Shown in pieces: positions 10,522-36,152 of a DNA stretch of 64,000 bases (position 1 is the stretch's first letter; each line of letters opens with the position of its first letter). Both the position numbers and the translations under genes were made by a program. The notes below the pieces were generated by a model. It did no database searches, was not told the origin of the DNA, and saw only the letters and a program-made list of their open reading frames with translations. This DNA comes from Raillietiella orientalis (lineage: Eukaryota): contig JAYWIR010000026.1 in NCBI GenBank assembly GCA_036172245.1, positions 62,001 to 126,000 of the forward strand, read 5' to 3'.

Positions 10522-10767
10522 TTTTCATCCGGTTGCGCTGGGGCGTTCATTCCTTAGAATAGAACAAACGTTGGTGGCTGACAAGGTGGTCCGGCCACGC
10601 ACTGGTATACAAAATTAAGCCTGCCGGGTCAACAGTTCGTATTCCGGCACGGTCCATTACGACAGTAGAGGAACCAAGGACAAAACAAAAAATAAAACAA
10701 AAAAAAGAAATATTTAAAATCAAGATCTGGGGGGCACGGGAAGGGATCACAGTCTGCTGTGGGGCCG

Positions 10768-13700
10768 TTACATCCTTTGAAGGATGCCGGCAAGCTGTTT
10801 ATGGATTTTTGAATCCACATAAGTCCATCCTGTCGCCGTCCGCATAAATTCGTCTGCGCACTGGACGGCACCCTTATCGCGAGGGCCTCCCGTTGCTTTG
10901 CTCCATGCAGCGACGATCCCATGAGAGCAGCAAAGGGCTGCTAACGCGGCCGAGGGCCGAAGGGCGTCGCAAACGAAGAGGCATCTGATTACGTCTGTGG
11001 GGTTGCCACAGGGGTTACCGATTGCCGCGGCAAAACGGTTCCAAAGGGACCAAAAAGCCACACAATCCAAAAGGAGGTGAGAAAGGGACTCCCGTTCACC
11101 ACACCTCGCACAATTAGGGCTCACTGCTCCCAAGAAACAATGGTGACGGCGGACGTTGCACAGGAGTTCCTAATGCAGCAACAATAGCGCCGACTCCTGT
11201 CATTTTATGGGGAGGATGGAGGTGTTCATCAGCACCGGGAGCCACTTCAATTGTTCTCGCGGAACATTAAGCAGCTCGCTTCAGCGCATAAGTCCAATAG
11301 GAGGAGTAATCCGGGCCGCAGTATCGAAGAAAATACCCGTTTTCCATTCCCCGATCTTTTTTTACGTACCGGAGATATTAACATACACATCCCATTTCGC
11401 AGCAGTGTTGTCTTCCAAATGTTCCGCGAGCAGAAACAGCATTGCAACGAGGGGAGTTTTTCTTGCCCACGCTCGTATTTGTGGGTTTTCCAGGACCTCC
11501 CGGAGCATCAGGCGGTCATTACGTTCGAAGAGATGTCTCTGCCCTTCTTGGGTGCGTTGCTGGTTGCTCCTTGGCCACGTCTGAACCGTTTCCTGTAGCC
11601 ATGCAGGTCCGTTAACGAAGCGACAGCAGAGCCATCCTGCGTACTTGCTCATCAGGTCAGCCACTCTCCGTAGCTGCAACCAGCAGTGACCGACTTGGCG
11701 GCGCCGACGGAGCGCAAGGAAGGATGACAGTCCCACCTTGCCTGTAGCCTGCTCGACGAGGAGACGTGCGGGCTCGCACCAACTGCTACTCCAATATTTC
11801 GCCACTAGGGCGAGTAACCGAAACTGGAGCTGGAGCTCCAGCCGCTCTAGCGTCAGGAGGCCGACACCGCCGTCCCGACGCGGAGCGCTCAAGTCCTCAA
11901 GCCGGACTCGGGCCCTCCCATTACCCCACAGGGCAATCCTTAGGAGGTCCTTCGTCCGCTTTTTAGTCTCTGTGGTGGGAGGGCAAACAAAAAGTAGTGA
12001 ACGGAGAAGGGGTTTACGAACGCGTTCCACACCGTGGCCCATTCCGGCAGAAAAAACCTGCGGCCTTGGAACGGGCCGACAGCAATCTCTATCTTCTGAA
12101 GATAGCTGGACCACGCATCCGAAGGAAAAAAATCCCCTATCGGTACTCCAAAGTAGTTGAATTAGTTCACCGTAAAGATCCTTAAACGAACCCAGTCCTG
12201 CTGCCCTGGCCACGCCGCACCAACTGGCATCACGGACGACTTCGACCTGTTTACCTCAAGCTTGGTTCCCCGACTTTGCCGGTCGAAGAACTCCTCGACC
12301 GCCGATGCCGGGGTGGACATAGGGAGCAGCAGCAGTAGGTCGTCCGCATATGCTGACACCGCGGGCGTACCGGGATAGTCGCGCGGCAGGTGCGCTAGAG
12401 TTTCCCTGTACGCTCTGAGTACCAACTCGAAGTAGGTACTGAAGAGCAAGGGACTCAGGCTGTCTCCCTGTTGTATGCCGCGTCGCTCCGGTACGCCGTG
12501 CACGGTGTGTTTACTGGAAAAGATCTGGATGAGCGCGTCGCGCCAGCAGGATTGCAGGTAGGTCAGCAAAGAGACCGAGAAGCCCAAGCGTTCCAGGAGC
12601 TCCAGAAGGAGCCTCTGGTCGACACAGTCGAATGCTTTATGCAAATCGACTGCGACTGCGAGGGCTCCTTCCTCCCCCCCAACCATCCCGTTTCCTAGCG
12701 GCGGACATTCCGGAAGTCCGGTTGCCCATCCTGATTCTTTCCTGTTGGAGCGCGAAAAAGGTGCTGGCGAGGAACAGGTTGCCATCCACGCTCCGCCCGG
12801 GAACAGCATATGTCTGCTCCAGGCTAATGAAGCTTTCCGCTAACCGCCCCAGGCGTTCAGCCCACAATTTCGCTAGCAAATTGGCGTCCGGGTTTATCAC
12901 GGTAATCGGCCGCCAGTTGCTCATGCTCCGAAGGTCTCCTCCCTTAGGGAGGAGACGCACCTTTGCCGAACAAAACGAGGCGGGGACGTCGCCCGTTTCG
13001 CGGATCAGCAAGGTGAGTTTCTTTACAAGGGGAGTAAGCTTTGCCGCGAAACATTGAAAAAATTCCGCTGGCAGGCCGTCCTTTCCTGGAGCCTTCTTCC
13101 TTTTGAGCTTTTTGATGGCCGAGATGATCTCGCCCATCGTGAAAGGCTCGCCGAAGGTGTTTCTATCTTCCTACCCGATCGCCGGAGCGCCTTCCGGAAG
13201 AAGAAGTCGCGAGACATCCCGTTCCGGTGGAGCGCGCGCGTATACGGAATAGTAGAATTTTTTTAATAAGCCTTTTCCCCGGGCGGGGGCCGAGTGCTCC
13301 GAGCTCTGGTCGTCCAGTAAGCTGGCCGACCGGGATTGCCACGCCTGCCTCTCGGCTTCCGCACAATATTCGGCTAGCCTGCGTACGTCTGGTGTTCGCG
13401 CGTAACATCGAGATAGTAAATACCATCTCTCCTTACGCACGCTTTCACCAAACCCGGCAGGCAGGAGGTTCATAGGGAACTCCTCGCAAAAATTCCGGAC
13501 CGAGCGCTTGAAGCGGTCCCAGTCCTGAAGCGTCTGCAAGCTGAAACGTCATAGGAATCCGCGGAGATGCTCCGCGGCTTCCGGAAGTTTCAGCCAGTCC
13601 CCCGCTAAGCGGCACGCAGATGACGGCGGACCCCTGTCGCGTGGGCGCACATCGAGTACGATCAAGTCATGGTCCGACAGTTCCGACGGTAACTTGCCGC

Positions 13701-14334
13701 GCCTGCCCACGCGTGAGCATAAGTACTGGTCAAGAAACACGTGATCTATGCTGTCGGCTATTTTCGGATTTCCCACGAACAAGTTGCGCGTGTGTATCTC
13801 TGCGCACAGCTCGTTCACGCGGTCCCGGAGTGTGTCGGACGCACCTGACAGCAGGCGCAGGTTAAAGTCACCTGCGATTAGGTGCGCTTTGCGCACTCTA
13901 GTTTCGTCCAGATATTTGCGCCTCAGGGTAAAAAAGAAATCTCTCCTTGCCTTTGCCCTTAGCGCGTCGCTGCCGCTTGGGGCGTACACGTTGTTAATGA
14001 CCAGATCGATGGAGTCGGACCACCTGATGGTAAACTGCCCGACGCGACCGGCACTATCGAACCGTACGCCCTTTGCCGCAGCCTCGACAGCTGGAAGAAG
14101 CAGGAACGCGACACCGCTAGATTTTACGGTGTCGCAACGCCAAAGCAGCCGTCCACCCGAGATACGCTCGATCTCGGTTGCTTGATCTGCGGAGATCACG
14201 TGGATCTCTTACAGCAGCACCAGGTCGAACGATGCCAGCTTGGAGGCCACGTCTCGTCTCTTGCCGTCGTCGCTTAGCCCGTTGACGTTCCAACAGGCGA
14301 TTCGAAGTCGGCGTCAAGAGGTGATTCACGGCAT
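10768..14334 (-). pseudogene. Element E ORF2 (APE-RT-CCHC), disrupted
   Basis: NNVYAP, AGDFN, IDH, SDH, KAPGKDG, WRPIT, DLHKAFD, QQGDSLSP, YADD, CARCGERESLSHLLLDC. Confidence 0.93.
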
Positions 14335-15962
14335 CAAGGCTGGGAACGTGGCGTTGCAGCATCTGTTAACAAACAGGTGGGAGGGACGAGTAAGGGGACC
14401 GCGGCCATCTCAGGCACTTGAACCACCTGGGGCACAGACTCTACCCTTTTCCTCCCTCCGGGGTCGCAGCGTGAGGTTACCTCTCGAGGAGAGTCCCCGA
14501 AGTTCCCCACTTTATCGGCACGCTCGCTTCCCTCAATTATCTCTCCTTTTTGCACGGACGGGATAATTTTGCGGGTAGCCTTCTTCGTGCGATTGGCCTT
14601 CGGGCGGGAGGCCGCGATGCCGCAGGCTGTGTTTTCCGCCTCTGCGTCAGAGTTCGGAATCTCCGACTTCTTGATCGAGGTCGGACGCCTTAAGGCCTTT
14701 TTCGCGGATTTAAGGGGACGCTGCAAGGACGCAGCGAGCTCCTTCGCCGCTCGCTCAAAGGCGACGTCGTCGAGCATGCGTTCGACGACGGACGCCACCG
14801 CCGGGTCGATAGCCTCCGGCATTAATTTGCCGGAGGGCTGAAAGTCGGCAGCGACGAGTGCAATTTTGCCGCTCTGTTCGACCGCAGGAATGCGCTTGAT
14901 GACGACAGAGCAGCGTTTGATATTTTCGCGACGCGGCAAATTCTCGCTGCGTTTCGCGACATTTTTTTTTGCTTCCTTGAGGCTTTTCTGCCTCTTGGAT
15001 TTTACTACCTGCCATCCAGGTTCCTGGCCGTTCTCCTCGACCTTGTCCGAGTTTTCCAAGATCTCGGAGCTGACCTTCACCTGGGGCACGATAGTTGTTT
15101 TCCGAGCGGCGGCTGTCTCTTGGGCTGCCTGAACTCGTCTTTTTCTGGCCGCGCGCTTCTTCGCATTCCGTGCGGACGCGACGCGGACTTCATTTTGCGG
15201 GCACACTGGAAGAGTGTGCCCGGGTTGCTTGCATTGCTTGCACTGCAAGTGGGGGCACCTTTTTTTCAGGTGACCTGAAGTGCTGCAATGCCCGCAGAAA
15301 TGCGGCTTACCGACATACCAGATGTCAACGGGTTCGCCGTTGACCTCCAGCTTGTTAGGTAGGGAGCAACCCTCGCGGACCGTGATGCGCGCGGAAGCCA
15401 TACCGCAATTCAGAAGATCGTACTCCCAAAACGGAGTCGGCCTTTTCCACAACGCGTGGACAGTTCCAAATTTAATTAATTCCTTTCGGACAGCCTGTTT
15501 GGCCATCCGGAAGGTGATTCCGAGGAGGTGGATCACGATAGATCTATCCTCCGTGATGGGGAGGAGCCGGCGATTTCCTAAAGGAACAGGTGTACGGAGC
15601 AAACGCTGGGCAAGACTTGCTTCTTTGCAAATCACCTCAACGTACTGTCCACCACTCCTGATGGTCATCGCCAAGAGCTCCTCCTGTGGTACTTTGAGGG
15701 AGTGCATCGCTTCCCTGAAAGCGCGTGCACTCTCAAAGGAGTAAAGGTTGTCTACCTTGTAGAGTAGGAGTGGATTGTACTTCTCCTCCAGGTAGGCTTT
15801 CAACTCAGCCGCAGCCGCTCGCGTTGGTGTTGCAGCCACGGAACTCCAGCTTCTCCCTAGCGAGGGAGTCGCTTTTGTGGAAGCGGTTGCCCCCACATCC
15901 ATTGATTCAGGGGGCGACATAGACGTCGCCCCTTCCTTAACATTGATGGTGGTCCCAGGCAT
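14334..15962 (-). CDS. Element E ORF1, intact 542 aa, RRM-like plus two CCHC knuckles
   Basis: ATG-to-stop open frame; CGHCSTSGHLKKRC and CKQCKQPGHTLPVC; stop overlaps the ORF2 ATG (TGATG). Confidence 0.92.
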   Translation of the reverse strand: MPGTTINVKEGATSMSPPESMDVGATASTKATPSLGRSWSSVAATPTRAAAAELKAYLEEKYNPLLLYKVDNLYSFESARAFREAMHSLKVPQEELLAMTIRSGGQYVEVICKEASLAQRLLRTPVPLGNRRLLPITEDRSIVIHLLGITFRMAKQAVRKELIKFGTVHALWKRPTPFWEYDLLNCGMASARITVREGCSLPNKLEVNGEPVDIWYVGKPHFCGHCSTSGHLKKRCPHLQCKQCKQPGHTLPVCPQNEVRVASARNAKKRAARKRRVQAAQETAAARKTTIVPQVKVSSEILENSDKVEENGQEPGWQVVKSKRQKSLKEAKKNVAKRSENLPRRENIKRCSVVIKRIPAVEQSGKIALVAADFQPSGKLMPEAIDPAVASVVERMLDDVAFERAAKELAASLQRPLKSAKKALRRPTSIKKSEIPNSDAEAENTACGIAASRPKANRTKKATRKIIPSVQKGEIIEGSERADKVGNFGDSPREVTSRCDPGGRKRVESVPQVVQVPEMAAVPLLVPPTCLLTDAATPRSQP

Positions 15963-16064
15963 TGCTGCCCAGCCATTACTAAATCCACCGGCACACCAAG
16001 AAAAAGAAAAAAATAAAACCGCAAACGCTCAACAGCGAAACAAAAATTCGTCCGCACTCGTTCG

Positions 16065-16971
16065 TATACCTGGACGATCTGGAAAGATCGGTCCGCGAGT
16101 TCTGCAGGCGTTTCCCCTTGCGCCTGCTGCCCCGTGTCTTCAGGCAAGGCGTGGCCAACAGCAGAGAGTTTCGGCAGGTCCGCCAATTCTCGCGATGCCC
16201 GAACGTCCGTTACCTTGCGGAGTACAAGGCCAAGACCGAGCGCCATTTCTGGCAGTCAGAAGCGGCTTGTCTGCTCTACGACCAGGGCCTGGAGTGCTCG
16301 GGCGCTGCCGATGTTCGCAGCCTCCTAAAGCGCTACTACTTCTCGTTGTATGCTAGGGAGCCGACGGAAAGAAGTCTTTCAAAGCTGCTTCTGCCGGTGG
16401 ATTCCCCTGCGGTCGACGAGGAGGAACGCGCCAGTCTTGAGTTGCCCTTCACGGCGAAAGAAGTGTCTTCCGCCATAGCGGGCCTCAAGAAGCGCAAGGC
16501 GCTCGGTGAAAATGGTCTGCCTGCAGAGTTATTCCGATGCTTCTTGGAGGAACTCATCCCCCTGGTGCTGAGGCTTTCTGCGCTGATGCGAGAGACGGAC
16601 AATGTCCCGGCCCCGTTTCGGTCAGCAAGGGTGCGTCTCTTGCCGAAAAGCGGAGAAATGCGCCATTAAAGCAACTGTCGTCCGATCACCTTGGTGAATG
16701 CGGACGTCAAGTTGTTCTCCAGGCTTTGGTTCGCGCGCCTAGGCAGGATTGCTGGATCCGTGGTAACTCCGTAGCAGTCTTTCGCTGTTCCCGGGCGGTC
16801 CATGGAGGCGAACCTGTTTTTCGCGCGCACGTGGCTCGAGCTGCGACGTCGCGTGGCTCACGACAGCCAGGCAACCGCATCTGCGGCTGCCAGGGCTAGG
16901 CGTCGCTGCATTTGGCCTGTGGAAGCGCCGGGTGCCTTGGCGGTCGCAATCGATCTCCGCATGGTGTTCGA
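16065..16971 (+). mobile_element. B-type ORF2 middle segment (linker to RT motif A), interrupted at the KAFD-equivalent codons
   Basis: Highly similar to 40514-41420 reversed; ends ALAVAIDLRMVFD. Confidence 0.9.
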
Positions 16972-17197
16972 TTTTCAACCGGATTTCGCCGGGGCGTTTA
17001 ATATAAAACAAACATTTATAGAGACGTGCAGTGGCTGGACCATTGCTTAAGCCACGCACGAAGAAACACAGAGCCTGCCGGGTCACCGGTTCGCAGACCG
17101 GTACGGTCCACCACGGCAGCAGGGGGAAGTGGGAAAAACAAAAAAAAAAAACAAACAAAGAAAAGAAAACAGAAAGTTGGGAGGGTAAGGGAAGGGA

Positions 17198-20100
17198 TCA
17201 CAGTTGCTGGTGGGGCCGTTGCATCCTTTGCAGGATGCCGGCAAGCTCCTTCTGTATTCCTGGATCCAGGTTAGGCCATCGGGACGCCCTCCTCAGGAAC
17301 TGGGAGGCTGGCTGGATGGCACCCTGGTCGTGTGGTCCTCCCGTAGCCTTGCTCCAGGCGGTGACGATCCCGCGTAGGCAGCACGCAGCTGCTAACGAGG
17401 CCGCTGGCCGAAGGGCGTCGGCAACGAAGAGGGCTTTCAGAGCGTCCCTGGGGTTGCCGCAGGGGATTCCGATGGCCGCGGCAAAGCGAAACCAAAGGGG
17501 CCGAAGGGCAACACAATCCACTAGCAGGTGGGGGAGGGACTCCCGTTCCCCACACCTGACGCAATTGGGGTCCACCGCTCCCCAGGTCCAGTGGTGTCGG
17601 CGGGCGTTGCAGGGGAGTCCCCAGTGCTGCAACAGAAATGCCGATTCCTGCCATTTCAAGGATAGGGTGGTGGTGTTGATGAGTACCGGTGGACACTTCA
17701 AACGTTCTATGGGAACGTCGAGCAGCGCGCTTTAGCGAAGAAGTTCATGGGGAGGCGTACTCGGGGTGGCAACGTGAGTCACCTGACCCGTCTTCCACTC
17801 TCCTATCTTCTTCTCCTTTTCGGAGATTGTTACTGAAACCTCCCATTTCGCCGCAACATCGCTGTCCAGATCTTCCATGAGGGAGGGCAGCGCAGCAGCG
17901 AGGGGGGTTCTTCCTGCCCACGCTCTCTTCTTTGGATCCTCCAGGCTCTCGTGGAGCGTGCAACCTGTATAACCCCCAAACAGGAACCTTCGTTCCTGTT
18001 GGGAGCGTTGCAAGCCGAACTCTCCCCACGTCCGAACGATTTCCTGCAACCAGGCACTATTGTTCAAAGGGCGACAGGTGAGCAATCCTGGGTTTTTCCG
18101 ATACAGCGCAGCCACCCTCCGTAGCTGGAGTCCGCATCAGTTGACGCGGCGACGGAGTGTAAGAAACGACGTCAGTCTTGTCTTGCCGGTGGGTTGCTGG
18201 AGAAGGAGACGTGCATGGACGCACCAACAGGTGCACCACAACTCTGGAACGAGTGCCGACAATCGGAACTGGAGCTGAAGCTCCAGCCGCTCCAGCGTCA
18301 GGAGGCCCAGACCACCATCCCGACGAGGAGCGCACAAGTCCTTTAAGCGGACTCGGGCCCTCCTATTGCCCCAAAGGGCGATACGGAAGAGGTCCTTTGT
18401 CCGCTTTTTAATGCCCTCTGTGGGGGGTCAAACAAAAAGCAGGGGGCGGAGGAGAGGAGCCGCGAACGTGTTCCAAACCGCGGCCCGTTCAGGCAGGAAA
18501 AACCTGCCTCCTCGGAACGGGCCGATCGCCGTCTCTACTTTTTGGAGACAGCCGGACCACGCCTCCGCAGGACAGTAGTCCCCCACGGCAAACCAAGATA
18601 CTTGAAGTACCTCACCGTGGGGATCCCCAAACGGACCCACTCCTGCTGCCCTGCCCACGCCGCACCAACTGCCATCACGGACGACTTCGCCCTGTTCACC
18701 GCAAGTCCGGTTCCCCGATGCAGCAGGTCGAAGAGCTCGTCGACCGCCGCAGCCGGAGTGGACATAGAGAGCAGCAGCAGAAGGTCGTCCGCGTATGCTG
18801 AAACGACCAGCGTCCCGGCACAGTCGTGCGGCAGGTGCGCCAGAGTACCCCTGTACGCTCTCAGTACCAGCTCAAAGTAGGTACTGAAGAGCAAGTGGCT
18901 CAGGCTGTCTCCCTGCCGGATCCCACGCCGCACCGGCACGCCGTGCACGGTCTGGGCGCTGAAACAAACGCTGAAAAGCGCGTCGCGCCAGCAGGAGCGC
19001 AGATAGGCCACTAATGAAACCGGAAAGCCCAAGCGTTCCAGAAGCTCCAGAAGGAGATTCTCGTCGACGCAAGCGAATGCTTTCCGCAAGTCGATTGCAA
19101 ATGCAAGGGCCCCCTCCCCCACCCGACCATCCGATTCCTCCCCGGCGCGCGCACCGGAATTCCGGCTGCGCACCAAGCTCCTTTCATGTTGGAGCTCTAG
19201 CCAGGTGGAAGCGTGGAACAGGTTCGCCTCCATGCTTCGCCCGGGAACAGCATATGTCTGTTCCGGGCTGATGAAGATGTTGGCAACCCGTCCCAGACGC
19301 TCTGCCCACATCTTGGCTATCAACATGGCGTCCGCATTCACTATTGTGATGGGACGCAAGTTGTTCATGCTCCTCAGATCTCCTCCCTTAGGGAGGAGCC
19401 GCACCTTTGCCGAACGAAACGAGGCGGGAACGTCACCTGTTTCGCGTATCATCAAGGTGAGTTGCTGTACATGAAGGTAAGCTCAGTCGCGAAAGTTTCA
19501 TGAAATTTAGCGGGCAGGCCGTCCTCCCCTGGAGCCTTTCGCCTCTTGAGCTTTCCGATGGCCGAGAGTATCTCGTCCATCGTGAAGGGCTCGTCGCGGA
19601 TCTTTCTCTCCTCCTCCCGGATCGCTGGAGCGCCTTCCGGAAGCAGGAGTCGTGAGACGTTCCTCTTTGGAGGTGCGTTGGCATACAGGGAGGAGTAGTA
19701 ACTCCGCAGCAGGACGCGGATTCGGGGGGGTGCCGAGTGCTCCTGACCCTGTTCGTCCAGCAAGCTGGCCGATCCGGACTGCCAGGCTTGCCTCTCGGCT
19801 CCCGCTTTGTCTTCCGCCAGCCTGCGGATGTCGGGGGTCCTGGCGTAACGACGGGCCTGCAGATAGGCTCGTTAGTTACGGACCTTGTTCCCAAAACCCG
19901 TAGGTAGGCACAGCAGAGGGAACTGGTCGCAGAACTCCTGGACTGACCGCTTGAAAAGGTCCCAATCCTGGATTGTCCGCAGCCTGGCGCTCCGTATGAA
20001 CGTGCGGAGATGTTCCGCGTGTTCGGGAGTTTCAGCCAGTCCCCTGGGAGAAGCCAGGCTGACGATGGGGGGCCCGTGTCGTGCGGATGGATCTCGAGGA

Positions 20101-20776
20101 CTAGCGGGCGATGGTCGGACAGCTCGCACGGTAACTTGCCGCACCTGCCCTCGCGAGGGCACAGGTGCTCGTCAAGAAACACGTGGTCAATGCTATCTTC
20201 CATCCCCGGTGCATTGTTTACCAAATTACAGGTGTGCATTGCCATGTACACCTCGTTGACGAGGTCACGCTCGGGAATCTGTTCATCCGGTTTCAGGCGA
20301 ACGTTGAAATCGACTGCAACCAGATGGGCATTCCGCACGCCTGCTACGGTCAACCAGTCTCGGCGGAGGGCAAGGAAAAACTCTTTCTGCGCCCTCCTGG
20401 TTATCAGGTCCGCGTTGCTCGGTGCGTACACGTTCCTGACGATCAGATCGATCAAGTAGGACCACCTGAGAGTCAGCTGGCCGACACGACCGTGATCGTC
20501 GAACCGCACGCCCCGAGCCGCGGCCTCGACAGATGGCCGAAGCAGGTAGGCGACACCGCAACTTTTCGCTCTCTCACACCTGTACCATAGCCGCCTTTCG
20601 GAGATCCGTTCGTTCTCTTGCGCTTGTTCTGCAGAGATCACGTGGACTGCCTTTAGCAGCGCAAGGTCGTAGGACTCCAGAAGGGCGGCCATGTCTCGTC
20701 TCCTGCCGGCGTCTCTCATGCCGTTTACGTTCCAAACGGCGATGCGCAGGCGACGGCGGGAGGAGATTCGCGGCAT
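17198..20776 (-). pseudogene. A1 ORF2 (APE-RT-CCHC), frameshifted
   Basis: IAVWNVNG, NVYAP, IDH, SDH, DLRKAF, RQGDSLS, YADD, CVRCGERESLPHLLVDC. Confidence 0.93.
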
Positions 20777-22364
20777 TACTGCTAAGAAGAATAAGGTGTG
20801 GGGTAGCCCACCTACTGCAAGGCATGCGGGATATCCACGGGGGTTTCGGACTTCTGAGGCACGTGAGGCACCTGTTCGGCCGCGACCCCTTCCATCCCCT
20901 CCGTTGTAGTGCGTGGGAGTCTATCGAGCGACGGGTCCCGAGAGTTTCGCACGCTCATGGCACTGTCGCTTGTGGAAGCCATCTCTTCCACTTCGACAGG
21001 GGAGACGAGGTTCCTTGGCTTTCTGGACTTACGTACAGTCTTCTTGCGCGGTGCCGTGTAAACGGAGGCTGCGCATCCGGCCTCCACGTCGGGGTCGGAA
21101 GTGGGCGACTCCTGACGGCAGGCCGGACGCCTTACGGCCTTTTTGCCAGACTTGGAGGGTTCTGGCTGCAAGGAGGCGGCCAGCTCCTCCGCGGCTCGCG
21201 CGAAGCCTACGTCATCGATGGTGGTGTCGATGACGGACGCCGCCGCCGGCTCGCACCCCTCGCTGTTGACAGATTCAACAGAGGGAAGGTAGTCGATAGT
21301 GGCGAGTACTTTCTGGCAGCGTTCGGCAACATCGAGAACGGGTTCGACGATGACGCTGCACTCTTTAATTATTGCGTTACCCTGCTGTTTCTTCTTCTGT
21401 TCGTAGGCGATTTTTTTTTCCATCCTCCTCTCCTTCTTTGATTTTTTGGATGTAGCCACCTGCCACCCAGGCTCCTGGCTAGTGCCCTCGACTTCTTCGG
21501 CGCTGTTCGCCGGGGTCTCGGGTGCGGCCTGGGCCTTGGGCGCGGGTGGCACAGCCTTCGCGGCAGCTTTCGCCGTCAGCCTTTTCTGCAGAAGCTGGGC
21601 GCGTTTTTTAAGGTTTCTCTTGGAAAGCACCCGCACTGCTGCTCTTGGGCACACCTCTCTCTTGTGGCCCATTGTGCCGCATACTTAACACTGCACGTTG
21701 GGACACCTCTTTTTGAGGTGGCCCGACGTATTGCAGAAGGCACAGTATTTCGGCTTCCCCACATACCAGAGGTCGACGGTTTCGCCCCGACCACCAGTTT
21801 GTGGGAGAGCGTCCTGCACACCCGAACGGTCACGCGTGCAGCCGTGAGGCCGTGTTGCATCCCCGTGTATTCTTCGAAAAGACTAACTTTCGTCCACTGC
21901 TCGTGGACCGTTCCCAACTGTTCCAAAGCGGCGCGTGTCCATCACAACGGGGGTTTTAAGCAGTCGTTGGGCCAGCTCTGCATGTCTGCAGATGACCTCA
22001 AGGTACTGACCCTCGCTGCGGATGGTCATAGCTCTGAGCTCTTCCTCTTTCACATCGAGAGCGCGCATGCCCTTCGAGAAAACGCGCGCGCTGTCTATAG
22101 AAATAAATTGCTTACCTTGTGGAACAATCAGGGGTTGTACCCCTTCTCTACATAGGCTGACAATTCCGCAGCGGCTGCAGGCGATGGCGCCGACACAACG
22201 GCGCTCCATGCCCGCGCTGCAGCGGGGACCGATTCTGTGGGGGCGGATGCTCCCACCTCCATCGTCTCTGGGGGCGACGTTGCCGCCGCCCCCTGGCTCT
22301 CCATTGTCTCTCGGGGCAACGTTGCCTCTTCCCCCTGACCATCCCTGGTGATCGCGTCATGCAT
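20776..22364 (-). pseudogene. A1 ORF1, frameshifted
   Basis: Fragments homologous to E ORF1 (EEELRAMTIRSEGQYLEVIC, GHKREVCP). Confidence 0.85.
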
Positions 22365-22458
22365 CGCTGCCTGATCGACCACGGAACCACACGACTCTTG
22401 CACTGGGGGAGACTTTCTGGCACGAGGAGCACCGAGAAAACACGTCCACCCTGGAGTA

Positions 22459-24321
22459 CGCAAGGCGTTCGACTGCGTAAATCAATATGTCCTGCTGGAG
22501 CTTCTGGAACGCCTCGGTCTTCCGGTGCACCTCGTGACGCATTTGCGCGCTTGCTACCACCACGCGCTCATTTCCATCTCTTTCAGCGGCTGTTACGTGT
22601 ACGGCGTGCCGGTGCGGCGGGGCATCAGGCAAGCTGACACCTTAAGCCCATCGCTCTTTAGCATCTTCTTTGAGTTGGTGCTGAGGGCGTACAGGGTAAC
22701 GCTCGCCATACTGCCGAGCTTTTGTCCAGGAACGCCGTACGTGGCGGCCTATGCTGACGACCTGCTCCTCCTCTTACCCATGACCACCCCGGCATCCAGT
22801 CTCGAGGATTTCTTCGAGCTGATTCGCCGGGGAGCGGGCATGAGCGTAAACCGGAGCAAGAGCGTGGTCGTACCTATTGGTGCGGCGTGGGAGGGGCAGT
22901 CCGACTGGATCCGCCTGGGGATCCCGACCGCTTCCTCCGTGCAATATCTAGGCGTTCCGCTGGGGAACATCAGCCCAGTGGAAGTGTGGTCGGACTGCCT
23001 TCGGAAGGCTTCGAATGCCCTGAGCCCGTTCCACCATGGCAGGTTCGTCCTGCCGGAGCGGGCCACGATATGGAACACCTTCGTTGCCCCTCTCTTGCGT
23101 CCCCTGCTTTTTGTTTGCCCGCCCCCCTACTCGGCCAAGCTCCAGGCGCTCAGCCTGTTGAGGAACGCTCTGTGGGTACCTGCGAGGTCCAGGATCCGCC
23201 TGAAAGATTTGGCGGCTCCGCGTCGGGATGCTGGCTTAGGCATCCTGACGCTGGAGAGAATCGAGCTGCAGGTGCAGCTTCGGATGTTGGCCCTGTGCGC
23301 CAACCTTTGGTCCACTCCGTGGTGCGCTCCCGCGCGCCTGCTTCTGCGGCGCTGCACAGGCAGCGACGTACTTCTGTCGCTGCGGCCGCACACGGAGCGC
23401 GCCACGAGAAGCTTCGGTTTCCCCTTGAAACCGCTGTATCGGCTCCGGGAAGCCCAGGAATGGATCTCCTGCCGCCCAACGAACTTTGAAGCCTGGCGGC
23501 AGGAACCGTTGCATGGCTGGGCAAAGCACAAGGATGTTTCCCTCCTGGAACTCCGTTGCGCTCACCTCTCCCCGTACTGCACGGTGGATGAGGTGTGCAA
23601 CAGCCAGGAGAAGTGGACCCGCCTGGCCGTCACCCCCCTGTCCGATGCACTGTCAGTCCTCAGGGCAAGAGATGACAGTTGCGAACCGACGAGATGGGAG
23701 GTCGCCTGCACCATCGCAGGAACAACGCGACCTATTGGCGGCTGGAAGACTTGCGAGCTGGCGGACGCCGCCACACCTCGCCACGTTCCGGAGGGACTCC
23801 TTCGGTGGAGCGAACACTTGAGTGTGCCCCTTGAAGAACTTGTGGTTCCTCCCTCGTGTCTGAACACTTCTGTGTTCCCCCTTTCGTGGAAGCAGGACGT
23901 GATTATGCTCGTGCATTGGGGTTTTCACTCCAACCAGCGCACGAACCTTGTTTCCGGGGGAGTCGTCTCCCCAAACTGTAAGCGGTGCGGGGAAGTGGAA
24001 ACGCTCCCGCCTCTGCTCTTCGTCTGCGGTGTCCTCGAAGGACTGTGGCGGAGGCTGGCTCCAGCTCTCCTGCACCAGGGGGACACCGCGAGGGAGTTGA
24101 TGCGCCGCTTCTTCACGCCAGGCGGCCTGTCATTGGGTGCTGTCGTTGCAACCGTGTGTTGCACCCGCGCCATCGACAAGGCCCACCGAGAGTTGGAGAA
24201 GCTGGCCATCCTTCGTCAGCCCACCGGATTAGCCAGCGCCAGCATGACGTCGGCAGCCGAGTGGGCGCATCTCCCACAGGGCGTAAGGAGAGAGATCGCC
24301 GGCATCCATCGCCGGTTTTGA
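22459..24321 (+). CDS. Open 3' half of B-type ORF2 (RT + C-terminal region)
   Basis: Uninterrupted frame with YADD, YLGVPLG, AGLGILTLE and CKRCGEVE. Confidence 0.88.
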   Translation, partial: RKAFDCVNQYVLLELLERLGLPVHLVTHLRACYHHALISISFSGCYVYGVPVRRGIRQADTLSPSLFSIFFELVLRAYRVTLAILPSFCPGTPYVAAYADDLLLLLPMTTPASSLEDFFELIRRGAGMSVNRSKSVVVPIGAAWEGQSDWIRLGIPTASSVQYLGVPLGNISPVEVWSDCLRKASNALSPFHHGRFVLPERATIWNTFVAPLLRPLLFVCPPPYSAKLQALSLLRNALWVPARSRIRLKDLAAPRRDAGLGILTLERIELQVQLRMLALCANLWSTPWCAPARLLLRRCTGSDVLLSLRPHTERATRSFGFPLKPLYRLREAQEWISCRPTNFEAWRQEPLHGWAKHKDVSLLELRCAHLSPYCTVDEVCNSQEKWTRLAVTPLSDALSVLRARDDSCEPTRWEVACTIAGTTRPIGGWKTCELADAATPRHVPEGLLRWSEHLSVPLEELVVPPSCLNTSVFPLSWKQDVIMLVHWGFHSNQRTNLVSGGVVSPNCKRCGEVETLPPLLFVCGVLEGLWRRLAPALLHQGDTARELMRRFFTPGGLSLGAVVATVCCTRAIDKAHRELEKLAILRQPTGLASASMTSAAEWAHLPQGVRREIAGIHRRF

Positions 24322-24549
24322 AAGGAAGGAACGGATTTACCAAAGACCCGTGTCCCCTGCCCTCCATATTTTTCTTTTTACTTTTTTTATAGTAGTGTAT
24401 TTGTGGTCCCCTCCCTCCCGTTCCGGACTTTCGGCATACCGACCTGCGTGTCGGGGATCCCACCCCCTTCGTCTCTTGTTTTCCCCTTTGTCCGGGAACC
24501 CTGTTCCCGGATAGTTTATAATAAACGCCCCGGCGCACTCTGGTGACAA
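22459..24549 (+). mobile_element. B-type element 3' half (RT, C-terminal domain, 3' UTR, terminal hairpin)
   Basis: Resumes at RKAFDCVNQ; near-identical to 38437-40527 reversed; ends GGTGACAA. Confidence 0.93.
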
Positions 24550-26662
24550 ACAGCCGAACCCCCGCGATCGTCTCTATCTCCTGAACGTCTGCTGCGGTGA
24601 CCACGTGGATCTCCTGCAGCAGGGCCAGGTCGAACTCACGCAGGTTGTCGGCCGTATCTCGTCTGTTGCCGTCGTCGCGCAGCCCGTTGACATTCGAACA
24701 GGCCACGCGTATCCGACGGCAACAGGCGAGCCCAGGTGTTAATCCCAAGAAATCGGAACTGCGGCGTCAGCCACCTGTTGGGGTGGGACGCTTGGAGGTG
24801 GACGGGTCGGTGCGTGGAGCACCTGTTCCTCCTCCTCCATTGGTGTCGGCGCGTCAGGCGGATCGCCCGAAGGTGTGATCGCGCCTACCTGATCGCCCTC
24901 CTTCATAAGGGCGGGCTTTTCGGGTTCGGCGCATTCAGGGTTGGCTCCGTTACTCTGCTCATCTTCCTCCATAGGGGTCGCCTGTGCGCCGGCTTCCGAG
25001 CGTGGGAGTTGCCCCTCCGGGTTTCCCACGCTGCAATCGGCTTCCGGCTTCTCCTCCTCGTTCAAAACGGGAGGGCACCTCTTGGGCCTTTGGGACTTAT
25101 GTACTGCCTTTCGAGGAGGTGCCTCCACGGAGGATGATGAGTTTCCGGCCTCCCGGTCGGACTCACCTGCGGGAGGCATTTTCTTCGGAGCCGGCCTGCG
25201 GACGCCCTTACGCGACGGGGTTTCGCGCTCGGCGAGCGTTGCCGCGAGCTCCTCTGCGGCCTTCTCGAAGGACGCGTCATCGCTTTCGGCAAACGTTGCC
25301 GCGGGCTCCTCTGCGACCTTATCGGACGCGGCGTCCTCGCTTCCGGAGCGCGAGTCTCGCGTCTCATCCTCTAAACTTCCTCTAAACTCTAACGAGTGAG
25401 CTCGTCCACGCTTGTTTCGATCGCGTCCCCATCAGATGTTTGCTAAATATTGCCGCGGGCGACCTCCGCAGGAACGGCTAAGCGTTCCAATGCCACCGAG
25501 CACTCGCGGAGTTTTTTTGAAATCGGCGCGGCTTTTTTCTTTATGCCGGCAGTTTTTTTCTCCGACTTTTGCTCTCCCAGAATCTTCTTTTTTTCTTTTC
25601 TGACCTTAACCAGTTGCCATCCTCCCTCCGCTTCCGCATCTTCCGCGATTTTATCATCCGACGCCTGGGTGGGAGGAGGAGGAGATGGCGGCTGGGGCTG
25701 GCCATTGTCACGCGCTGGTCTTTCCACCAGCTTTCCGCGCTTTCCCTTTGGCTTTTTGGCAGCAGGGAGCTCCGGGGTGGGGCGCTTAAAGCACACGCGT
25801 CGCACGTACCCCTTCACCCCGCATAAGTGGAACACAATGTTCGGGCACCTTTTTCGAAGATGCCCTACTGCATTCCAGTAGCCACATAATTGGGGTTTCC
25901 CCACGAACCAGAGGTCTACCGGTTCTTGGCAGACCTCCAGTTTGTAAAGAACCGCACCACCCTCTTTCACCGTGACACGCGCCGCGGCCTGGTTTCCGAA
26001 GATGCTACTGAAGCCATCAAAAATCTTAGGCTTCTGACACAACGCGTGCACTTCCCTGTGCTTCCGCAACTGATCACCAGCCGCTGACCGCGTCATGCAG
26101 CTGGTGATCCCGGTGAGATGGACCACTACAGAGCGGTCCATCATCACCACTAAGATCTTGCGACCATCAACGACCAGCGGGTCGGTAATCAGGCGTTGGG
26201 TCAAGGTGATATCTTTGCATACCACCTCGACCCGCTGACCCCCGCTGAGGACGAAGAGGCCGTCAAAATCTTGCTCCCGAATATTTGCGTTCTGCAGCGC
26301 CTTCGAGAAGGCGCGTGCAGTCCGCCCATCAAATGATGGTCCTACCTTATATATGAGCGAGGGTTTATATCCTGCTGCCCAGTAGGCCATTTGTTCGGCC
26401 AAGGCTCCGGCGCTGGGCGCTGCCACCATGGCACTCCAAGTCCTCGTCTCTAGCGGCGGATACGATTCCGAGGCGGATGCCCCTAAACAAGTAGGCTGTG
26501 GGGGCGAACAAGCCTCCCCCACGGTTACTTCCATCGCGGTGTCCTGTGGCAACGAAGCCATCGGACACCTACGATGTGAACGCACAAAACGCTTAAAGAA
26601 AAACGATCCTCTTGCCACGCAGGAGGATCGACGGAAAAACATGTCCGCTCACCACAAGCGAC
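24550..26662 (-). mobile_element. F-type element 5' part (ORF1 24739-26561, disrupted; start of APE), interrupted at the GVRL site
   Basis: 5' GGACATGTTTTT; ORF1 homology; RIRVACSNVNG and LLQEIH. Confidence 0.9.
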
Positions 26663-29587
26663 TTTGGTGGAAGCGTGCGTAAGGAGAGATGGTATTTACT
26701 ATCTCGATGTTACGCGCGAACACCAGACGTACGCAGGCTAGCCGAATACCGTGCGGAAGCCGAGAGGCAGGCGTGGCAATCTCGGTCGGCCAGCTTACTG
26801 GACGACCAGAGCTCGGAGCACTCGGCCCCCGCCCGGGGAAAAGGCTTATTAAAAAAATTCTACTATTCCGTATACGCGCGCGCTCCACCGGAACGGGATG
26901 TCTCGCGACTTCTTCTTCCGGAAGGCGCTCCGGCGATCGGGTAGGAAGATAGAAACACCTTCGGCGAGCCTTTCACGATGGGCGAGATCATCTCGGCCAT
27001 CAAAAAGCTCAAAAGGAAGAAGGCTCCAGGAAAGGACGGCCTGCCAGCGGAATTTTTTCAATGTTTCGCGGCAAAGCTTACTCCCCTTGTAAAGAAACTC
27101 ACCTTGCTGATCCGCGAAACGGGCGACGTCCCCGCCTCGTTTTGTTCGGCAAAGGTGCGTCTCCTCCCTAAGGGAGGAGACCTTCGGAGCATGAGCAACT
27201 GGCGGCCGATTACCGTGATAAACCCGGACGCCAATTTGCTAGCGAAATTGTGGGCTGAACGCCTGGGGCGGTTAGCGGAAAGCTTCATTAGCCTGGAGCA
27301 GACATATTCTGTTCCCGGGCGGAGCGTGGATGGCAACCTGTTCCTCGCCAGCACCTTTTTCGCGCTCCAACAGGAAAGAATCAGGATGGGCAACCGGACT
27401 TCCGGAATGTCCGCCGCTAGGAAACGGGATGGTTGGGGGGGAGGAAGGAGCCCTCGCAGTCGCAGTCGATTTGCATAAAGCATTCGACTGTGTCGACCAG
27501 AGGCTCCTTCTGGAGCTCCTGGAACGCTTGGGCTTCTCGGTCTCTTTGCTGACCTACCTGCAATCCTGCTGGCGCGACGCGCTCATCCAGATCTTTTCCA
27601 GTAAACACACCGTGCACGGCGTACCGGAGCGACGCGGCATACAACAGGGAGACAGCCTGAGTCCCTTGCTCTTCAGTACCTACTTCGAGTTGGTACTCAG
27701 AGCGTACAGGGAAACTCTAGCGCACCTGCCGCGCGACTATCCCGGTACGCCCGCGGTGTCAGCATATGCGGACGACCTACTGCTGCTGCTCCCTATGTCC
27801 ACCCCGGCATCGGCGGTCGAGGAGTTCTTCGACCGGCAAAGTCGGGGAACCAAGCTTGAGGTAAACAGGTCGAAGTCGTCCGTGATGCCAGTTGGTGCGG
27901 CGTGGCCAGGGCAGCAGGACTGGGTTCGTTTAAGGATCTTTACGGTGAACTAATTCAACTACTTTGGAGTACCGATAGGGGATTTTTTTCCTTCGGATGC
28001 GTGGTCCAGCTATCTTCAGAAGATAGAGATTGCTGTCGGCCCGTTCCAAGGCCGCAGGTTTTTTCTGCCGGAATGGGCCACGGTGTGGAACGCGTTCGTA
28101 AACCCCTTCTCCGTTCACTACTTTTTGTTTGCCCTCCCACCACAGAGACTAAAAAGCGGACGAAGGACCTCCTAAGGATTGCCCTGTGGGGTAATGGGAG
28201 GGCCCGAGTCCGGCTTGAGGACTTGAGCGCTCCGCGTCGGGACGGCGGTGTCGGCCTCCTGACGCTAGAGCGGCTGGAGCTCCAGCTCCAGTTTCGGTTA
28301 CTCGCCCTAGTGGCGAAATATTGGAGTAGCAGTTGGTGCGAGCCCGCACGTCTCCTCGTCGAGCAGGCTACAGGCAAGGTGGGACTGTCATCCTTCCTTG
28401 CGCTCCGTCGGCGCCGCCAAGTCGGTCACTGCTGGTTGCAGCTACGGAGAGTGGCTGACCTGATGAGCAAGTACGCAGGATGGCTCTGCTGTCGCTTCGT
28501 TAACGGACCTGCATGGCTGCAGGAAACGGTTCAGACGTGGGCAAGGAGCAACCAGCAACGCACCCAAGAAGGGCAGAGACATCTCTTCGAACGTAATGAC
28601 CGCCTGATGCTCCGGGAGGTCCTGGAAAACCCACAAATACGAGCGTGGGCAAGAAAAACTCCCCTCGTTGCAATGCTGTTTCTGCTCGCGGAACATTTGG
28701 AAGACAACACTGCTGCGAAATGGGATGTGTATGTTAATATCTCCGGTACGTAAAAAAAGATCGGGGAATGGAAAACGGGTATTTTCTTCGATACTGCGGC
28801 CCGGATTACTCCTCCTATTGGACTTATGCGCTGAAGCGAGCTGCTTAATGTTCCGCGAGAACAATTGAAGTGGCTCCCGGTGCTGATGAACACCTCCATC
28901 CTCCCCATAAAATGACAGGAGTCGGCGCTATTGTTGCTGCATTAGGAACTCCTGTGCAACGTCCGCCGTCACCATTGTTTCTTGGGAGCAGTGAGCCCTA
29001 ATTGTGCGAGGTGTGGTGAACGGGAGTCCCTTTCTCACCTCCTTTTGGATTGTATGGCTTTTTGGTCCCTTTGGAACCGTTTTGCGCGGCCATCGGTATC
29101 CCCTGCGGCAACCCGAGGGACGCTCAGTAATCCCTCTTCGTTGCCTACGCACTTCAGCCAGCGGCATCCTTAGCAGGCCTGTGCTGCCTTCGAGGGATCG
29201 TCGCCGCATGGAGCAAGGCTACGGGAGGACCACACAAACAGGGTGCTATCCAACCATCCTCCCAGTTTCTGAGGAAGGCGTCGCGATGGCTCTATCTGGA
29301 TTTAAGAATGCAGCAAGTGCTTGCCGCCGTTTTGCAAAGGATGCAACGACCCCACCAGCTACAGTGATCCCTTCACTTACCCTCCCACGTTTGCTTTTCT
29401 TTTTGCCTTGTTTTTTTTGTTTTTCCCTTCTTCACCCAGCTGCCGTGGTGGACTGTACCGGTCTGCGAACCTGTGACTCGGCAGGCTCCGTGTTTCTTCG
29501 TGCGTGGCTGGAGCAATGGTCCAGCCACCGCACGTCTTTGTTAAAGTTTATTAATTAATAAACGCCCCGGTGATATCCGGGTGAAAA
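26663..29587 (+). mobile_element. E-type ORF2 (RT) with an A-type 3' end; chimeric 3' portion
   Basis: 26663-29084 is an inverted near-identical copy of 11031-13452; the rest resembles the A1 3' end; terminal hairpin at 29557-29587. Confidence 0.92.
29557..29587 (+). terminator. Conserved 3'-terminal motif: AATAAA + CCCGG-N6-CCGGG hairpin + TGAAAA (representative of 9 copies)
   Basis: AATAAACGCCCCGGTGATATCCGGGTGAAAA; function inferred only. Confidence 0.7.
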
Positions 29588-32500
29588 TCGAATGCTTTAT
29601 GCAAATCTACTGCTACTGCCAAGGCTCCCGGCCTTTCTCCTGTCCGTCCGCACTGGCGCACGCAGTCGGCAGAAGGTCTTGCCGCTGTTCGGCTATCCGC
29701 CGCAACGCGCTCCTGAAGCTGCCACCAGGTGCGCGCGAAAAGAAGGTTAACATCCATGGATCTACCCGGTACAGCGTAAGACTGCTCCGGGCTTACCAGG
29801 GTATTTGCGACTTTTCCTAGGCGCGTGACGTACATCTTGGAAAACAACTTGACGTCCGTATTCACTAAAGGGATTTTACGCCACTTGTTGAGATGTTGCA
29901 GATCTCCTCCTTTCGGAAGGAGACGCACCCTCGCTGAGCGGAAGGAAGAAGAAGCTCTGATAGAACTCCGCGGGCAGCCCGTTCTTACCTGGCGTCTTCC
30001 ATTTTTTGAGTCCTGCGATGGCGGAAGAAACTGCCTCCAACGAGAAGGGCTCGTCGAGACGTGCACGTCTCTCCTCGCCGATGCCGTGTGCACCCCGCGG
30101 CGGAAGCAGTTCCTACAGGATTCTCTCCGTCGGGGAATTGGCGTAGAGCAAGGAGAAGTGACGTCTTAGTGTTCGCCGTACTTCGACAGGAGCCATGCAT
30201 TCGCGGACTTGGTCGTCGAGCAGAATAGCCGCTCCAGACTGCCAGAACTGGCGCTCGGCCCTCGCCTTGTACTCTGCGAGGTGTCGGACTCCAGCACGTC
30301 TAGAGAAGGTGCGCGCCTGCAGAAATTCTCTGCTATTGGCCACGTCTTCTCCAAAGCTGCACGGTAGCAGGTGCAGGGGGAACCGGTGGAAAAACTTGCG
30401 AACAGATCTTTTAAGATGGTCCTAGTCTGCGAGCTGCCTAATGGCAAAGCCGCGAAGCAACTGTCAAAGATGCTCCGCCGGCTCCCGATGGCTCAGCCGA
30501 TCCGTCGGAATCCTCCAAACATTGTTCGGAGGTCCCTTGCCCAGCGGGAGTAGCTCGAACTCCAGCCTATCATGGACCGATAACGTGGACGGCACCCTGC
30601 CTCTCCTTCCCACTCGCGAGAGTAGGTGTTCATCGAGGTAGAGGTGATCCACGCATCTTTTCAATCCAGGCTCGTCGGCTTCCAAGTTACGCGCGTGCAC
30701 CGACGCGCATGCCTCTTCCACCCGCGACCGTTCCGCCAGGGACCGCGTCTCGTTGGAAAGCTGGTGGACGTTGAAGTCCCCTGCGACGAGATGCGCCACT
30801 CTGGCTCCGGAGTTTCTGAGCCATCGGCTCTCCAGCACGTCAAAGAACTCGATTCTTTCGACACGCCGATGAAAGCTGCTCGGCGCGTAGACGTTCGTTA
30901 CGACGAGGTCGATTGAATCTGACCACTTGAGTACAAGTTGGCCCATTCGCCCTTCCTTGTCGAATCGAACGCTGCGCACCGCTCCCGCCATCCTTCTATT
31001 GACGAGAAAACCGACTCCGCACGATTGTGCAGAACCTTCTCGCCAGTACAGGGTGCCACCCGCGCGCTGTTTGATTACCGCAATCTCCGCATCGGAGATG
31101 TAATGCATCTCCTGAAGGATCACCAATTCGAAATGTCGCAGGGTGTCTGACGCGCCGCGCATCTTTCCGTCCCTGCGCAGCCCGTTGACGTTTCAACAGG
31201 CTACGCTGAACCGACGAAGAGAGGCGACTTCCTCCATTAAGGCTGGGAAGTTGAGCACAGGTTTCTCTCCTTGTCCGGCGAGTGGTCACGAGACAGAACG
31301 GCAGATCATGGAGACTAGACATCTCCATTCGAAGCCGCCCTGCTTGTTGCCGGTAGCTCAGAGGTGAGGCCCATTCCATCCTCTTTGCTCCCCAGCAACA
31401 GTTCCTCTTCGACAACAACGCGCTTGCGGGTGTCCAAGAGGCGATTCCGCGGTTTCGGGCGGGTTTCCCGCTGTGTGCTGATTCTTTCTAACTCTGGATC
31501 GGAATCCGACAGTCGAGCGCTTGACAGGCGCTGCTTCTGTTTCCCGGAATTGGGGAAATCATTTGCTGCCTGTTCCTTAGCGCTTTCTGCTACTGCGGCT
31601 GGGACTTTCGTCCTTTTAGCCGCAGCAGCAGCTTTCCGCTGCATGCGCGAAAGGACGACTGCACAGAAGGAAAGGATCGCAATCTTTTTTTAAGATGGTT
31701 TCGCGGGTTTCTTTTGCCCACTCACCTTCACACAGAGCTGCGAGGACCTTGACGTTTCTTTTTAATAACCTTCTCACCTGTATCCAGCCGTCTTCCTTCG
31801 CGTCGCAGTTATCTTTGCCCTCCTGAGATGGCGCTGCGTGCGCGGATGTAAGAAACGCTGCCTTGGCTGCCTCTTGAAGTGCTGCCTCCGCGCAGGCGTA
31901 AGCGACTCCCTTAGCGATCGCGAGAGGCGCTGCCTCTTTCAGATCGGAGGATTCGCGCGTTGTCTTTGCGACCGCTGGGGGCACTGCTGTAGCGGTTGTG
32001 CTCGCCCTAGCAGTTTGTACCTTGGCCGCAGTAGGCGCTGCGTCTGCGCGCGAGGACTGCGGGTTTGCCGGCTGTTTCTTCGCGGCACTCGGCGCCTGGG
32101 GCACCTTGGCCGCGGTAGCTTCAGACGGCGCGGTGTTCTTTGCCCGCAAGCGCGATTCTCCCATTTCGGGAGATCGAACGCATTCCTCGCCACTTGCCGA
32201 GGCCTTGATAGGAGGCTTCGCGGTCGCGATGCCGACAGTAGAAGGCTTCTTGTCCTCCGGCGCACTCTCTCCAGCATTGAAAATTTCGCTAAGAGGTTTC
32301 GGTGAGATCTCGCATTGCTCGCGAGCTTCCTTCGGCTCGGTAGCCTGAAGCTCCGCCGAGACGCGTTTTTTTTTTATGTTTTTCTCCCCTTTTTTGTGGA
32401 GGATAGGAAGAGTTTTCTGCGCATGCGCGTTTGCGGTTTTCGCAACGCTCTCAGTTTTGAGGTTTTTTTCCCTCGATTCGCGGCGTTTATTTCGCGATGC

Positions 32501-36138: not shown

Positions 36139-36140
36139 GC

Positions 36141-36152
36141 GGACGTGTTTTT
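36141..36152 (+). promoter_or_regulatory. Conserved 5'-terminal motif GGACGTGTTTT, putative internal promoter element (representative copy)
   Basis: Present near 8 element 5' junctions; function inferred only. Confidence 0.55.

Follow-up and report, generated by a model that had tools for sequence, protein, structure and literature searches.

Apparent target-specific insertion of a LINE into the DNA for reverse transcriptase motif A of a sibling LINE clade

Long interspersed nuclear elements (LINEs) with a specific target are known for genes of ribosomal and of small nuclear RNA, telomeres, microsatellites, DNA transposons and long terminal repeat (LTR) elements. LINEs of the R1/R2 type, which are specific for ribosomal DNA, insert with nucleotide precision into a multicopy conserved sequence, and in the case of R1Bm reverse transcription may be positioned with the aid of transcripts that extend into the adjoining target. 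The present study deals with a LINE, termed A1, in a stretch of 64,000 nucleotides from Raillietiella orientalis (GenBank assembly GCA_036172245.1, contig JAYWIR010000026.1, positions 62,001 to 126,000 of the forward strand; this whole stretch is called the window). Our analysis indicates, with a probability of roughly three in four, that A1 is a dead, structurally complete L1/Tx1-like LINE of a clade A, that it was inserted by target-primed reverse transcription (TPRT), antisense, into the DNA for motif A (D-L-R-K-A-F-D) of the reverse transcriptase (RT) of a second LINE clade, H, and that it belongs to a target-specific family. Unlike R1/R2, the target here is the gene of another retrotransposon and not a host RNA gene, and read-through is suggested by one off-site junction, that of a related insert termed A2.

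LINEs of the Tx1 clade are the closest described systems in which the target is a transposon. PMC4494074 describes Tx1L in the piggyBac-type Tx1D, Tx1-Mar in Mariner-N4_AMi and Tx1-9_AMi in Harbinger, and gives LTR retrotransposons as the targets of Tx1-8_Crp/Tx1-4_AMi. The elements studied here resemble the Tx1 clade in being probable LINEs of the apurinic endonuclease (APE) type with a putative CCHC open reading frame 1 (ORF1), in occupying repeatedly a fixed position and orientation in another mobile element, and in sparing host genes. They differ in their target, which is neither a DNA transposon or LTR element nor an RNA gene or microsatellite: what is struck is a conserved coding motif (RT motif A) in LINEs of a sibling clade. 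The likeness to Tx1 is one of insertion behaviour.

A second comparison is offered by the clusters of L1-type LINEs formed by Zepp (Chlorella, Coccomyxa) and ZeppL (Chlamydomonas), which in PMC3446292 and PMC8226300 are said to arise by nested insertion targeting existing copies. The window resembles them in being a LINE-only island of nested related copies. Zepp is described there as tandem arrays made mostly of 3' ends through 5' truncation (PMC8226300), whereas A1 and A2 are full-length; moreover, the insertions in the window are antisense (8/8, not head-to-tail), go across clades and not into self, and strike one nucleotide of a coding motif. The comparison with Zepp/ZeppL is by description. 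Green algae mostly use a polyadenylation signal other than AATAAA; in the elements of the window AATAAA precedes the 3' end. In a limited search of open-access full text, no description was found of a LINE whose specific landing site is a coding motif in sibling LINEs.

The features that define the A1 locus are the following.

16958..16971, plus strand: left copy of the target-site duplication, CGCATGGTGTTCGA, the end of the upstream half of the host; it encodes ..R(K)AFD of RT motif A.
16972..22458, minus strand: A1, the inserted LINE, 5,487 bp, antisense to the host.
22459..22472, plus strand: CGCAAGGCGTTCGA, the right copy of the target-site duplication, with no difference from the one copy that the paralog H2 contains.
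16072..16971, plus strand: upstream half of the host H1, residues 1-284 of the paralog ORF (RT N-terminal), 89-91% identical to H2 throughout.
22473..24549, plus strand: downstream half of H1 with the remaining RT, the C-terminal domain and the 3' untranslated region (UTR); 3' end ...AATAAACGCCCCGGCGCACTCTGGTGACAA at 24549.
38437..41413, minus strand: H2, the uninterrupted paralog, with the 'empty site' at 40514-40527, an ORF of 899 amino acids (aa) at 38665-41364 with RVT_1, and its 3' end at 38437.

The insertion and its duplication are seen directly. A first-pass annotation of this DNA had named two 14-mers flanking A1, and both are in place: CGCATGGTGTTCGA at 16958-16971 and CGCAAGGCGTTCGA at 22459-22472 agree at 12/14 positions and differ at 2/14. 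The duplication that the annotation put at 14 bp is present; its size is possibly 14-16 bp, the two T's after TTCGA being either target or tail. With up to 3 mismatches the 14-mer occurs 22 times in the window against 9.4 expected, a number reached in 0/100 shuffles. H2 holds CGCAAGGCGTTCGA once, at 40514-40527 on the minus strand. In a BLAST search of the window against itself 16072-16973 matched 41413-40512 (89.6% over 902 columns) and 22459-24866 matched 40527-38127 (94.3% over 2,409 columns), and these two matches share 16 nt (40512-40527) of the empty copy. When 15900-16971 was joined to 22473-25000 and compared with the reverse complement of 38000-41600, the joined host was colinear with H2 in a single high-scoring segment pair that runs across the joint, with 3,295 columns, 92.99% identity and 4 gap openings. 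The earlier proposal that excision rejoins 16065-16971 to 22473-24549 is therefore borne out as regards colinearity, but the homology of the host begins at 16072. The rejoined coding region (16121-16971 plus 22473-24321) gives 899 aa in one frame, with 0 gaps against the 899-aa ORF of H2 (P0001) and 90.8% identity to it; it contains 2 internal stops, both in the left half. Identity between host and H2 is equal beside the insert (91% in 16872-16971 and 90% in 22459-22658), as expected for a simple insertion into continuous sequence.

H2 is a paralogous copy of the host family. Its identity to H1 is a mosaic, being ~90% near the insert, 98-100% over 22859-24258 and 100% over 23659-24058, and the flank beyond the 3' ends of H1 and H2 is 80-86% identical. 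Owing to this mosaic and to its paralogy, H2 is a proxy for the pre-insertion state and not the ancestral locus: the single 14-mer was rightly noticed in it, but it is not the same locus before insertion, as 'empty site' had implied. The H2 element extends upstream through an endonuclease (EN) region (42276-41476) to ~43420.

The site lies in the DNA for RT motif A, as had been claimed for the peptide RKAFD. The split peptide DLRKAFD aligns to IDAEKAFD of human L1 ORF2p; in the alignment of P0001 with this protein (8c8j, E 3.4e-32, the best solved relative) VDLRKAFDCVNQ stands opposite IDAEKAFDKIQQ. We take the aligned KAFD stretch to be the RT motif A that carries the catalytic aspartate. Matches of P0001 to R2 proteins of solved structure are weaker (E 1e-14 to 1e-11). 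RVT_1 was found both in the host paralog (E 5.1e-19) and in the RT piece of A1 (E 3.8e-18).

A1 has both ends of a LINE. Its 3' end at 16972 (sense ...ATTAAACGCCCCGGCGAAATCCGGTTGAAAA) directly touches the left 14-mer and shows an ATTAAA signal, a CCGG stem and ...TTGAAAA; its 5' end at 22458 consists of TACTCCAGGGT (11 nt) followed by GGACGTGTTT at 22447-22438. Between them lie C-terminal ORF2 pieces (17198-18136), the RT (18535-19482, RVT_1), EN with a linker (19433-20920) and ORF1 pieces (20827-22394). Both ORF1 and ORF2 are split over several frames, so A1 is structurally complete and not coding-competent; the description of it as full-length is right for its ends and domain order and fails for its coding capacity. 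The EN region of A1 is 50% identical over residues 36-298 to that of M, a relative in the window whose ORF matches Exo_endo_phos (E 6.9e-13). A1 ORF1 is homologous to the ORF1 of another insert, A5 (47-52% identity), but is frame-broken; zf-CCHC was detected in ORF1 of the element G2 (E 5.5e-5) and of M (E 6.9e-4), while the match in A5 (0.0056) is below the cut-off. No LTR-like repeat was seen in the self-BLAST of the window. Among named proteins in the databases the nearest show 25-33% identity; their sources are fish, frogs, ticks, fungi and plants. Judged by its length, the outside protein closest to P0005 (60% identity) could have begun at the motif-A break, but this was rejected, as it spans the motif intact.

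The duplication, the exact 3' and 5' termini and the colinear, in-frame host support TPRT over rearrangement, as the first-pass annotation had held. A nested LINE with a duplication is ordinary by itself. The value of the A1 locus is that it offers the window's cleanest two-junction example, with an empty paralog, of what appears to be site-specific insertion of LINE into LINE; together with the 14-bp duplication this fixes the target and the positions of both nicks.

The same nucleotide of the H-clade RT gene has been used by other A-clade elements in the window. The copies concerned are as follows.

29588..31282, minus strand: upstream half of the host h29 (H clade), ending ...CATAAAGCATTCGA at 29588-29601, broken by A3.
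26663..29587, plus strand: A3, A-clade insert, A1 coordinates ~2610-5487, 3' end ...ATCCGGGTGAAAA at 29587, antisense to h29.
33400..33781, plus strand: upstream fragment of the host h33 (H clade), ending ...TGCAAAGCGTTCGA at 33768-33781, broken by A4.
33782..36141, minus strand: A4, A-clade insert, A1 coordinates 3125-5487, 3' end at 33782, antisense to h33.
47250..48593, minus strand: A5, an A-clade insert represented by its 5' part (12-1305 in A1 coordinates), ORF1 at 47384-48538; its 5' end at 48593 adjoins the host 14-mer.
48594..50647, plus strand: downstream half of the host h48 (H clade), beginning exactly with the 14-mer CGTAAAGCGTTCGA at 48594-48607.

Three A-clade 3' junctions fall at one nucleotide (16971/16972, 33781/33782 and, on the minus strand, 29588/29587), and all three read TTCGA^TTTTCA(A/C)CCGGAT, where ^ marks the junction. 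In letters, ...gatctcCGCATGGTGTTCGA is followed by TTTTCAACCGGAT at 16971/2, ...gatctcTGCAAAGCGTTCGA by TTTTCACCCGGAT at 33781/2, and ...gatttgCATAAAGCATTCGA by TTTTCACCCGGAT at 29588/7 on the other strand. At the two 5' junctions 11 nt plus GGACGTGTTT adjoin the 14-mer, ...CACGTCCACCCTGGAGTA being followed by CGCAAGGCGTTCGA at 22458/9 and ...CACGTCCGCTCTAGCCGA by CGTAAAGCGTTCGA at 48593/4. In total five junctions lie at the same nucleotide; they come from 3-4 insertions, all antisense, and antisense to the host are also all 3' termini found in the window (8/8, two-sided P = 0.008).

Maximum likelihood trees built from 390 bp before the site and 600 bp after it separate {H1, H2, h29, h33, h48} from {A0-A4, M}, with support of 100/99 and 99/98 and with M as sister to A0-A4. 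Among the 12 RT copies in which the motif-A site is visible (the fragments 53049-53966 and 61757-62350, without the site, were left out), the site is broken by A-clade elements in 4/5 H-clade copies, in 0/6 of A0-A4 plus M and in 0/1 of a distant family K. For H against A/M this gives a Fisher P of 0.015, or 0.048 if A2 and A3 are counted once. The site appears to be chosen and not random, and in this window only H-clade copies are broken. A scan of metagenomes with the junction pattern gave at least 120 loci, and among the matches listed none shares more than the pattern with the element or with P0001/P0002. Comparison of these loci with the element and the two proteins gave one 31-nt BLAST match (E 4e-4) and no tblastn match, and the loci are judged to be chance matches.

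The order of the nicks and the manner of recognition can be proposed as follows. The endonuclease of the element would nick the sense strand of the host immediately 3' of ...GCGTTCGA, or at most 2 nt beyond this point, and the freed 3'-OH would serve as primer on the element RNA, whose copying would start at its end ...CCGGUUGAAAA. A second nick on the other strand, 14 nt upstream, would lead to the 14-bp duplication, and synthesis would run to the 5' end of the RNA. Read-through transcripts carrying the old flank UCGAAC... may anneal to the nicked target and help. For recognition itself we lean towards a sequence-specific endonuclease whose recognition would extend beyond the 14-mer and probably take in the bases immediately 3' of the nick. 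The stretch 3' of the nick reads (Y)(W)GCGTAAAYCA (C-V-N-Q) in the three H-clade copies that show it, against GYGTYGACSA (C-V-D-Q) in the A-clade copies and M. This comparison of letters suggests the blocks GTAAAYCA and GTCGACCA as candidate recognition stretches beside the nick.

One further A-clade copy has to be introduced before this reading is weighed.

10522..16071, minus strand: A2, a second structurally full-length insert in H1, at the site ...GTGAGCTCGA^TTTTCATCC, in the stretch that follows the EN domain; on its left lies the host piece 9642-10521.

Several findings weigh against the reading given above. A2 groups with the A clade and yet occupies another site. Its last 500 bp are only 63-73% like other A copies, so it is possibly of another lineage; that is, A2 may be a different lineage with an overwritten RT. 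A2 (11016-13415) and A3 (~26.7-29.1 kb), on opposite strands, are ~100% identical over 2.4 kb with a sharp drop to 65-71% in the last 500 bp, which would be either recent gene conversion or homogenisation in the assembly. Copying at the DNA level does occur in the window, as the A2/A3 and H1/H2 tracts show, and composite copying is conceivable. Over their first 380 bp (the 3' UTR) the inserts A1 and A4 are 71.7% identical, which is on a level with their hosts (71.4%). The strands and order of A4/h33 and A5/h48 fit each other and their 14-mers agree at 12/14 positions; a single insertion may have left both pairs as its ends, which would make 3 events and not 4. The EN region of A1 (P0002) gave no Pfam match at E <= 5. 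The proposed discriminator beside the nick rests on 3 versus 5 sequences. The 14-mer of h29 is identical to the unbroken motif-A 14-mer in A2 and A3, and thus the 14-mer alone is not the recognition signal. Finally, the numbers are small and come from a single window.

The best surviving alternative, which we consider unlikely, is that an A-type element entered an H-type one a single time, by chance and without targeting, and that the other filled sites derive from this composite, or one from another, through segmental duplication or gene conversion in the repeat island. The A2/A3 tract and the 98-100% tract of H1/H2 look like conversion, the parts of the arms H1-G1-A3-h29 and H2-G2-A4-h33 follow one another in mirrored order, and the equal identities of the A1-A4 pair also fit it. 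On the other hand H2, the closest relative of the host H1, is empty, and the filled copies h29, h33 and h48 stand much further off, which makes the A1 event, at least, a separate one. Hosts are less alike than inserts in 3/3 comparisons over 2 kb: upstream host flanks are 64-72% identical pairwise and the first 2 kb of the inserts 73-83% (P 1e-7, 1e-6 and 1e-3 for the three pairs). There is no high-identity tract in the host flanks at the junctions. The internal coordinate of the cut is 2610 in A3 and 3125 in A4, the hosts too are cut differently, the flanking nests differ, and inserts and hosts are cut at different places by different later insertions. The independent events therefore number 3-4. 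As an observation apart, the mirrored order H, G, A, h (16072-31282 versus 43420-33400) makes up a large, imperfect palindrome; its two arms are unlike in their cut points and in their divergence.

Targeting could also be genuine but loose, with a preference for a short motif such as TCGA^TT and with motif A as a local hotspot in LINE-rich DNA. The A2 junction likewise ends ...CTCGA^TTTT, and the region is almost wall-to-wall LINE, so any insertion strikes a LINE. However, TTCGA occurs 149 times and TTCGA[TC][TA] 35 times in the window, so a preference of 5-7 nt cannot explain the recurrence; despite these sites 3/4 of the A-clade 3' junctions and 2/3 of the A-clade 5' junctions use the H-clade motif A, while A0-A4 and M, whose motif-A sites are near-identical to it, show no break there (unbroken in 6/6). 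We regard this explanation as still less probable than the previous one. A rearrangement or mis-assembly joining unrelated repeat copies is very improbable: the window is highly repetitive with some suspiciously identical tracts, and two DNA sequencing runs (0.08 and 0.06 of sampled words) gave on 15500-25500 338 and 1 short contigs, mostly 85-95% identical, none bridging either joint and thus neutral on the junctions, but a 14-bp duplication, exact termini at both joints, a restored frame and equal identity on the two sides would not be expected of a mis-join, and the same junction sequences recur, diverged, elsewhere in the window.

If target-specific insertion into motif A of the H clade is true, a LINE homing to the catalytic-motif codons in its siblings would have a target of a new type, one hard to mutate away, and each insertion would kill a competitor. 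It would also provide a testable mechanism for the self-assembly of LINE-only islands, like the Zepp-type clusters proposed as algal centromeres.

The off-site junction of A2 reads GAGCTCG+A+TTTTCA, with an extra A that is absent from homologous host copies. A read-through RNA ending ...GAAAAUCGA (the usual flank being UCGA...) would supply this A; being one case, it is a hint. No clean reading of a target-site duplication was obtained for A2. The host piece to its left (9642-10521) is colinear with the H2 upstream region at 65-70% identity, the right piece (from 16072) is 90% identical, and the jump falls exactly at A2; this could mean that the insert halted a conversion tract, or that the element is a chimera.

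The host family has a target of its own, for which three more elements are needed.

24550..26660, minus strand: G1, the element in which H1 landed, with its 5' end, ORF1 at 25443-26648 and EN to about residue 111; antisense to H1.
36137..38436, plus strand: G2, the element in which H2 landed, broken at the same EN nucleotide as G1.
43432..47240, minus strand: M, a relative of G1/G2 with both sites unbroken; H-family EN target at 45210/45211 and its own RT motif A, CATAAGGCGTTCGA, at 43688-43701.

The ends of H1 and H2 (GGTGACAA) both fall at one nucleotide in the EN gene of G1/G2 (24549/24550 and 38436/38437), antisense, after the codons ..G-R-L, and this site is intact in M (45210/45211). The G1 and G2 flanks at these ends are 80-86% identical, falling to ~60%, so the H1 and H2 insertions are separate. 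The host family H is itself site-specific, in the EN gene of a third clade. The 5' ends of G1, G2 and M all adjoin A-clade copies (A1 coordinates 2610, 3125 and 1305); the missing remainders of their 3' parts were not found in the window. Twin priming was considered for the head-to-head joints of G and A and was rejected, as ORF1 of G1/G2 is far from that of the A clade (30-43% identity) and the expected target duplication is absent.

It is possible, though we hold it doubtful, that there is a directed chain of sibling LINE clades, each landing antisense in a conserved enzyme-coding motif of another, with A going into RT motif A of H, H into EN of M/G, and the 5' ends of M/G adjoining A. If such a chain were true, each clade would escape its own nuclease by a codon-level difference beside the nick (C-V-N-Q versus C-V-D-Q), and the guild would itself build and renew LINE-only islands at no cost to host genes, in an arms race over the most conserved codons.

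Some observations concern the window as a whole. Eight 3' termini (10522, 16972, 24549, 29587, 33782, 38437, 52850 and 63136) share an AATAAA-like signal, CCCGG, a loop, CCGG(G) and TGA(A/C)AA. RNAalifold on these eight ends gave an invariant 4-bp stem with 0 compensatory changes, and hence no evidence of covariation either way; no Rfam family reached the gathering score anywhere in the window. With at most 1 mismatch GGACGTGTTT occurs at 2830, 22447, 26646, 33388, 36141, 47236, 48582 and 54234 and sits 10-16 nt inside at least 6 apparent 5' ends of several clades, so that many copies seem full-length at the 5' end. H2 is 5'-truncated in a zinc-knuckle-like stretch of ORF1 (43420-43437) and adjoins the RT of M at about residue 369 in the same orientation, a joint that simple insertion does not account for. 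Family K (4549-9019, minus strand) is a distant LINE whose EN/RT is 25-32% identical to the others and whose motif A (TDMEKAFDSIDH) is unbroken. The segment 54300-61700 has a lower G+C content (46-50%), few long ORFs, no tandem repeats and no LINE homology in the searches made, and may be the edge of the LINE island; in positions 1 to ~54,000 and 61,700-64,000 nearly all of the sequence consists of LINE copies that interrupt each other.

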